From: Escherichia coli | GTDB taxonomy: Bacteria; Pseudomonadota; Gammaproteobacteria; Enterobacterales; Enterobacteriaceae | Reading direction: 5' to 3' (one strand) | DNA: 965 nucleotides | Assembly (NCBI RefSeq): GCF_003334335.1 | Contig: NZ_QOWQ01000134.1 | In this document: positions 1-965 of the stretch, one piece after another | Position numbering within the stretch: position 1 is the first letter of the stretch | Layout of the letters: every line of letters begins with the position of its first letter | Program-made: the position numbers and the translations under genes | Notes under the pieces: model-generated | The model's database searches: none | Told to the model about the DNA's origin: nothing | What the model saw: the letters and a program-made list of their open reading frames with translations, nothing else

Positions 1-965
1 GTGATTTCATTGCGGGTTTCTGTGATGGTGGTCTGCATTTCCGCCATCTCGTCCTTCAGCTGACTGTTGTCAATCTCTGCCCACAGCGCCTCTGCCAGAT
101 GCAGTTTTCCTATTTTTTCCCGAAACAGCCCCAGATACCCTTCTGCATCATTGCTGGCCCGTCCACTGGCTTCAACAAAAGCAGATTTACCCACCAGGTT
201 GACGCTGCGCACATAAAACCAGAAATCCTTTCCGGGCTTAATGTGCGGACCGGAGACACTCCACTGACTGCCGGTCCCCAGATAACGGGCAGAGGTTTCC
301 ACCTGTGCGGCGTCTGCAATTTTTGCCTCCGAAAACCAGAACTCAAACTGCACCGTCGGGTCATACACCGCAAGACGCGGGACTGCCGTTATCTGAAAAT
401 ACCCCGGCGTCAGTTCAACACCGGCAGGCGCTGCCGGTGCGTTAATCCGGAACGTGGTGGTGGCGGGTTCGCCCTGCTGGCCATAGCTGTTAATCGCCCT
501 GACCGTCAGGGTGTATTCCCCGGGAGGCAGGCCACTGAAACGGTGCTCCGTATCGGCAGTGATGGCGGTGGTCAGCAGGCGGCTGTTCTCACCGCTTCCA
601 CTGGTCAGGCGCAGACTGAAGCGCACGCCCTTCACCACCCGCGGCGTGTCCCATTTCGCCAGCGCCAGATACTGGCCGTCAGCTGCGCTCACCTCCACCG
701 TCAGGTGCTGCACTGCCGGTGGGATAACGCTGTTCAGGGTGCCTGACTGCGGCTCAAAGCGGGCTCCGTTATCCACAATGGCTTCTTTTTCCGGTACGTG
801 CTGCACTGCCGTGATGGCAAAGGTGCCGTCCGTGTTTTCCCGGATGGAGACACAGCGGAACAGGCGACGGCGCAGTGACGGCAGGGAGAGTCCCCACACC
901 CCGTATGTCTCCACACCATCAGGCAGGGTACTGACCTGTATCCGGTCCGGCGCGGGGTGTGCGGT
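1..965 (-). CDS. J: Host specificity protein J / tail tip attachment protein (lambdoid gpJ family), internal fragment, partial at both ends
   Basis: Minus-strand frame with codon boundaries at + positions 3..965 is open for all 321 codons (positions 1-2 are a partial codon). Translation N->C, reading 965->3: [321 protein letters not shown]. Long stretches match my recollection of the central part of phage lambda gpJ (e.g. [71 protein letters not shown]). The protein is not low-complexity, unlike the R/C-rich products of the track ORFs. No start or stop lies in the window, so the gene extends beyond both edges. Confidence 0.93.

Follow-up and report, generated by a model that had tools for sequence, protein, structure and literature searches.

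The J gene fragment

The window, that is the whole stretch of 965 nucleotides that was analysed, lies within a single protein-coding gene. Positions 3–965 on the minus strand constitute an internal fragment of the lambdoid tail-tip host-specificity gene J, and the frame is open throughout (minus-strand frame 0 is free of stop codons over all 965 bases). The closest match in the phage collection is the annotated J of Escherichia phage PhiR5_1, with 99.1% DNA identity, and the best match in complete E. coli genomes reached 97.9%; no 100% match to the window was found in either the phage collection or the complete E. coli genomes. The fragment corresponds approximately to residues 536–857 of the PhiR5_1 J protein (1157 aa). 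In PhiR5_1 the gene sits between gene I and lom, and the K-I-J-lom context is known from this phage, the window being without flanks. Homology over the Ig-like region identifies the product as a lambda-type J: residues 8–300 of the window translation align to residues 543–837 of lambda gpJ (phmmer against PDB, 8iyk_J, E = 3.8e-125).

Two consecutive J-specific Ig-like (FNIII) domains were identified in the window by Pfam, both on the minus strand. The first, Ig_J (PF24421), spans window positions 435–746 (residues 74–177, E = 2.7e-41), and the second, Ig_J_second (PF24489), positions 126–431 (residues 179–280, E = 1.6e-38). In the structures of lambda gpJ the two Ig-like domains are named FNIII-1 and FNIII-2 (PMC10721106, PMC11101478).

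An inverted repeat at the domain border

The palindrome under study consists of two 9-nt arms that are 100% complementary and flank a loop of 3 nt. On the plus strand the left arm, CACCGGCAG, occupies positions 419–427, the loop GCG positions 428–430 and the right arm, CTGCCGGTG, positions 431–439. On the coding strand the right arm is the upstream arm and reads CACCGGCAG, the loop reads CGC (positions 2 and 3 of an Ala codon and position 1 of a Pro codon), and the left arm is the downstream arm, CTGCCGGTG, which covers Pro positions 2 and 3, Ala, Gly and position 1 of Val. It is the sole perfect hairpin in the window with a stem of at least 8 bp and a loop of 3–30 nt, and the PhiR5_1 J gene likewise contains no other perfect hairpin with 8 bp or more. 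The earlier note had described a perfect 9-bp inverted repeat in which 419–427 is the exact reverse complement of 431–439, and this description is correct.

The coding-strand codons at the site (417–440, minus strand; residues 176–183 of the window translation) are GCA CCG GCA GCG CCT GCC GGT GTT, encoding APAAPAGV. The Pfam border falls inside this peptide, with Ig_J ending at residue 177 and Ig_J_second starting at residue 179. The peptide aligns to residues 711–718 of lambda gpJ (APAAPSRI), and a published truncation, gpJ713, begins at the homologous lambda linker site (PMC11101478). The palindrome is thus located, as had been proposed, on the Ala/Pro linker that joins two beta-sandwich modules.

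The 9-mer CTGCCGGTG (coding sense CACCGGCAG) is present twice on the plus strand of the window, at 431–439 and at 713–721. The copies are 282 nt, or 94 codons, apart, and at 713–721 the encoded peptide is PPAV, where the first Ig-like domain starts. That both tandem domains start with the same Pro-Ala DNA motif is consistent with an origin by duplication. An antisense ORF of 215 aa (99–746, plus strand) spans the palindrome. It was not treated as a gene, long stop-free antisense stretches being found in all alleles (median 247 aa); such stretches are expected because they lie opposite a GC-rich gene.

Chance level and codon arithmetic

When the window was shuffled 5000 times with its dinucleotides preserved, a perfect stem of ≥9 bp closing a loop of 3–8 nt arose in 2.5% of the shuffles; with the loop set to exactly 3 nt the figure was 0.5%. 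Synonymous-codon permutations, in which both protein and codon usage were kept, yielded a hairpin of at least 9 bp in 2.3% of cases, and in 1.8% the hairpin fell at the same peptide. The shuffles and the permutations agree with the earlier estimate of a few percent, and the 1.8% bears out the accompanying remark that Ala/Pro codons favour palindromes of this kind. Given the peptide and the codon usage of the window, the probability of the 9-bp stem is 2.2%, corresponding to approximately one in 45 encodings. Approximately 206 kb of non-redundant lambdoid DNA contained 30 distinct perfect hairpins of the same class (approximately 0.15 per kb), a count that takes in allelic variants and terminator-like intergenic hairpins. 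An event of about 2% is not significant for one feature picked from a scan of many windows.

The frequency of the stem can be understood from the register of the hairpin: the first two bases of a codon face those of its partner codon in reverse order, 1 pairing with 2 and 2 with 1, and the third bases pair with each other. In this register an Ala codon (GC-) complements another Ala codon, a Pro codon (CC-) complements a Gly codon (GG-), and Val contributes the G that pairs with the C of the first Ala. Through this Ala-Ala, Pro-Gly and Ala-Val complementarity the amino acids fix six of the nine pairs, as can be read directly from the sequence, and the remaining three are free wobble-wobble pairs (A/T, G/C, A/T).

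Folding and regulatory signals

The DNA hairpin alone has a folding energy of approximately -11.2 kcal/mol. As RNA it comprises 10 pairs including one G-U, and both the MFE and the centroid structure predicted for a 121-nt mRNA context contain it. At -18.1 kcal/mol the palindrome is the strongest 29-nt local fold in the whole PhiR5_1 J mRNA, the next best reaching -15.0 and all 29-nt windows of J averaging -5.1 kcal/mol (sd 2.8). The corresponding local fold in other linker alleles ranges from -1.6 to -8.1 kcal/mol, against -18.1 in the allele with the palindrome. However, the 121-nt context was no more stable than its shuffles (z = -0.12).

No Rfam match to the site was obtained at E ≤ 1. The stem is not followed by a T-run on the coding strand, where TTGAACTG comes next, or on the plus strand, where CGTTAATC does, and a scan for terminators and promoters made no call at the palindrome stem. 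An intrinsic terminator was therefore rejected: the GC-rich stem is present, but it has no T-run, lies inside an uninterrupted ORF and is not called by the scan. A conserved structured RNA or cis-regulatory hairpin was rejected as well, since pairing among alleles is at shuffle level, covariation shows no excess and Rfam gives no match.

Other terminator-like sequences were observed in and around J genes. The scan returned four terminator-like matches in the window, against 0.9 ± 1.0 in shuffles. A match at 404–424 (minus strand), composed of CCGGTGTTGAACTGACGCCGG and then GGTATTTTCA, has an RNA fold of -12.3 kcal/mol, lies inside the ORF and contains only four T. It shares CCGGTG with a palindrome arm and would compete with the palindrome because of this shared motif. 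Outside the window, two loci (L001 and L019, approximately 763–792) contain a long perfect hairpin, AAACCCCGGTATCAGCAGATACCGGGGTTT, of 13–18 bp with T-runs, upstream of J (start 896). A separate hairpin, ACAGGCA[C/T]CCCGGAGG[G/A]TGCCTGT, is located at approximately position 821 of locus L024, again upstream of J (start 962); of its two forms, one differs from the other by a compensatory pair. Judged by sequence, these upstream hairpins look like real terminator-type elements, unlike the palindrome studied here.

Conservation across linker alleles

The allele survey covered 83 J sequences: the window, 80 IMG/VR loci, lambda and PhiR5_1. The palindrome was found in 23 of the 83, and all 23 carry an identical 45-mer. 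It is restricted to one linker allele and absent from 15 others including that of lambda; linkers without it include APAKPATI, APAVPATI, APAAPASI, APAAPATI, APAAPSRI and more. The palindrome is consequently not kept across J alleles with differing linker peptides, a point that the earlier note had put forward as a check. When the stem was scored on the 16 distinct linker alleles, 51.4% of the cells paired, compared with 50.8 ± 1.4% in shuffles, and 228 of 500 shuffles reached the observed value. The covariation score over the same 16 alleles was 0.049, against 0.046 in shuffles.

Whole-collection scans for every encoding of the 10-residue linker peptide returned 38 stretches in IMG/VR and 28 in the metagenomes. 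Two of these, L083 (IMG/VR) and L149 (metagenome), read GCG CCT GCA GCG CCT GCC GGT GTT, so that the peptide is the same and the stem is broken. The two synonymous changes amount to two arm mismatches, and the local fold drops to -11.4 kcal/mol. Loss of the palindrome where the peptide is kept, which had been named beforehand as the outcome pointing to codon choice, is hence found in nature, the evidence being these 2 of 66 pattern matches only.

In L083 (3084–3115) and L149 (1932–1963) the linker is readable as a near-perfect 9-nt tandem, GCGCCTGCA GCGCCTGCC, encoding APA-APA. Because it is readable in this way, the linker qualifies as low-complexity sequence, and such sequence is generally prone to slippage or conversion. 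The tandem suggests that slippage or conversion took place within the linker of these two sequences. Alternatively, they could be recombinant between L012-type and window-type cassettes.

Among 85 fetched carriers the 21 nt of the palindrome are invariant. In the alignment, the invariant block reaches from approximately 12 nt upstream to approximately 80 nt downstream of the 32-nt search pattern. As the block extends well past the palindrome, the invariance reflects a shared haplotype, not stem-specific constraint, and purifying selection on the stem of the carriers was rejected on the grounds that the aligned block is far wider than the palindrome.

A J relative is present in 2056 of 5426 complete E. 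coli genomes, and these 2,056 genomes contain roughly 6,750 J places. A 71-nt cassette with the palindrome was matched in 182 E. coli genomes, 118 of them at ≥99% identity. The palindrome cassette is a minority allele in E. coli.

Mosaicism of J and the linker

J alleles are strongly mosaic. Each of 68 unique J sequences was rebuilt from the others over 2.87 kb with a copying model (Viterbi), and the density of joints at the palindrome ±20 nt was at the 98th to 99.8th percentile. Mapping breakpoints relative to 419–439 had been suggested as a check on a recombination or module-shuffling point; joints are dense there, but independently of the palindrome, since without any of the 17 unique sequences that bear the palindrome the enrichment was still at the 98th to 100th percentile. 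Nucleotide diversity in the 21-nt linker (0.269 vs a mean of 0.076) exceeds that of every other 21-nt window in the first 2.9 kb of J, and the enrichment of joints tracks this diversity because dense differences force donor switches in the copying model. Linkage between flanking sites, with ±25 nt excluded, was r2 = 0.081 compared with 0.108 ± 0.040 (22nd percentile), and linkage is low along the whole J gene (r2 about 0.1 everywhere). A hotspot of recombination driven by the palindrome was rejected, since joints persist without the carriers and linkage across the site is ordinary.

One upstream haplotype occurs together with three different versions of the linker. The linker does behave as a short, variable and reassorting mini-cassette. 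The diverse stretch corresponds to window positions 406–455 (q511–560) and the homologous positions in loci L001–L082.

Two further features were observed downstream (coding sense). A second small cassette at window positions 366–395 (q571–600) shows 8 substitutions in 30 nt relative to otherwise closest relatives. It is carried by the window, PhiR5_1, L001 and L003, and its peptides, VPRLAVYD / VPKLTIYD, lie at the start of the second Ig-like domain. At window position 328 (q638) a break in homology was found, as many Stx-phage J genes (H28–H40) match only q1–638 in megablast. This break is inside the second Ig-like domain; in coding sense it lies downstream of the palindrome by approximately 90 nt and does not coincide with it.

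Origin of the two arms

The two arms differ in their distribution. The upstream arm CACCGGCAG (coding sense) is common to lambda, L035, L049 and L153, none of which has the palindrome. The downstream arm (coding sense) is specific to the allele encoding the palindrome peptide and is also present in L083 and L149. The nearest non-palindromic cassettes, L122 and L153 (E. coli 95-3322), differ from the window within q502–563 only at q537, 544, 546 and 547, the changes towards the window being a loop change from GCA to GCG and the replacement of AGC ATT by GGT GTT. Stepwise intermediates, which count in favour of a by-product of codon choice, are represented by L035/L120 (..GCA CCG GCC AGC ATT) and L122/L153 (..GCA CCT GCC AGC ATT).

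This distribution allows the speculation that the palindrome is the footprint of a quasipalindrome template switch, in which case the hairpin would still be non-functional but its perfection would be mechanistic and not due to chance in codon choice. An ancestor resembling L122/L153, CACCGGCAG-CAC-CTGCCAGCA, has an inner stem of 5 bp, on which the nascent strand would fold back and copy the upstream arm. AGCA would then have been turned into GGTG in one event, changing Ser-Ile to Gly-Val. The sharing of the upstream arm with other alleles and the allele-specific downstream arm fit this scenario, as does the fact that three of the four differences from L153/L122 complete the stem. Furthermore, the imperfect repeat of L122/L153, with its 5-bp inner stem and -8.1 kcal/mol, could prime the switch, and all other sampled alleles have ATT (Ile) where the window allele has GTT. 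Against it, the argument is partly circular, the site having been chosen for being a perfect palindrome, and no cluster of substitutions in excess of background was found, although copying explains three of the four changes. Between these alleles, clusters with ≥4 differences per 11 nt, or with ≥3 per 4 nt, are to be expected (P about 1.0 for both L153 and L122; 0.92/0.75 for L120, giving an overall range of about 0.75–1.0). The loop change A537G is unexplained by copying, L083 and L149 carry the derived downstream arm without a matching upstream arm, and codon 544–546 varies in all alleles (AGC, ACC, ACG, AGG, CGG, GGT). A template-switch origin is possible, without statistical support, and we consider it unlikely. 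If true, one replication error turned Ser-Ile into Gly-Val in the linker of a phage host-range protein, rewriting two residues, and the hypervariable linker would be a case of multi-nucleotide templated mutation generating diversity in a phage tail protein.

Interpretation of the palindrome

We favour the reading that the palindrome is a non-functional by-product of the codons in one FNIII-1/FNIII-2 linker allele of J, to which we assign a probability of about 0.8. The peptide A-P-A-A-P-A-G-V supplies six of the nine pairs, and the three wobble pairs match through codon choice. The linker is short and highly variable, and the Gly-Val version is one of many cassettes, no other of which completes the stem. 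Judging from the lack of conservation, a role in recombination, transcription termination or translation appears neither needed nor indicated. This agrees with the alternative offered in the earlier note, that the repeat may be coincidental, which the evidence favours. Several observations count against the by-product reading: a 2% event is uncommon at a single site, the palindrome lies exactly on the domain border, it is the strongest 29-nt fold in the PhiR5_1 J mRNA, where no other perfect hairpin reaches 8 bp, and its 21 nt are invariant in the 85 carriers, the last being shared with the surrounding haplotype.

Two functional explanations have to be weighed against this reading. The hairpin could act in the mRNA, as a site of ribosome pausing after FNIII-1 that aids co-translational folding, as an RNase or stability determinant, or as an internal terminator. 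Its presence in both predicted structures of the 121-nt context, its rank as the most stable local fold in J and its position on the domain border speak for such a role. An effect on mRNA structure, also raised in the earlier note, is nevertheless disfavoured by the shuffle-level energy of the context, by the other J alleles, which have the same domain architecture and no comparable structure, and by the same-peptide variants L083 and L149 that break the stem; the missing T-run on both strands, the absence of a terminator call at the stem and the lack of an Rfam family match point the same way. We regard a function in the mRNA as highly improbable. Slightly less credible still is that the DNA hairpin serves as a functional recombination point, at which breakage or strand exchange swaps modules on the FNIII-1 side and on the FNIII-2 side. 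The high joint density around the palindrome and the joining of one upstream haplotype to three linker cassettes are what it would predict, but the enrichment stays after removal of the 17 carriers, the site coincides with the diversity peak, and linkage across it is ordinary in a gene where linkage is low throughout. In addition, arms of 9 bp are much shorter than palindromes that are known to provoke cruciform or SbcCD processing. The proposal of a module-shuffling point at the palindrome is accordingly not upheld by these data.

Taken over all roles, the chance that the palindrome has any function appears very small. It seems to be dispensable in the same-peptide variant and not to be tied to mosaic joints, as far as the compared alleles indicate. 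With the by-product reading a well-known phage gene loses a candidate for a regulatory or recombinogenic element, and in itself this matters little. It does provide a rule for discounting similar features: in linkers rich in Ala, Pro and Gly, perfect short palindromes need only a few matching wobble bases, because in antiparallel register Ala codons complement one another and Pro codons complement Gly codons. The diverse, reassorting FNIII-1/FNIII-2 linker is of modest use for engineering or typing of J alleles.

Comparison with known systems

The linker between FNIII-1 and FNIII-2 of lambda gpJ (approximately residues 711–717, APAAPSR; PDB 8IYK and 8XCG; gpJ713 in 8XCJ) occupies the homologous position, and it has the APAAP core and the upstream-arm DNA CACCGGCAG in common with the window. 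It differs in encoding Ser-Arg-Ile (TCG AGG ATT) where the window encodes Ala-Gly-Val (GCC GGT GTT). Because of this replacement lambda is without the palindrome, and its local fold is -6.4 kcal/mol compared with -18.1 in the window.

With Rho-independent terminators the palindrome shares a GC-rich, perfect stem of 9 bp and a short loop, whereas it has no T-run on either strand, lies inside an ORF and is not conserved.

Quasipalindrome template-switch mutations, or Ripley-type templated mutations, have been studied with reporter genes in E. coli. The differences between the window and its nearest allele resemble them in being clustered, in being confined to one arm and in making an imperfect repeat perfect. 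They are unlike them in that the clustering is not in excess, the loop change is unexplained and the derived arm occurs without its partner in L083 and L149.

Segments of tail-fibre and host-range genes are exchanged mosaically among lambdoid phages. The J alleles compared here follow this pattern, being heavily mosaic with short cassettes that reassort, one of them at the linker, whereas the mosaicism of J is gene-wide (r2 about 0.1) and independent of the palindrome.
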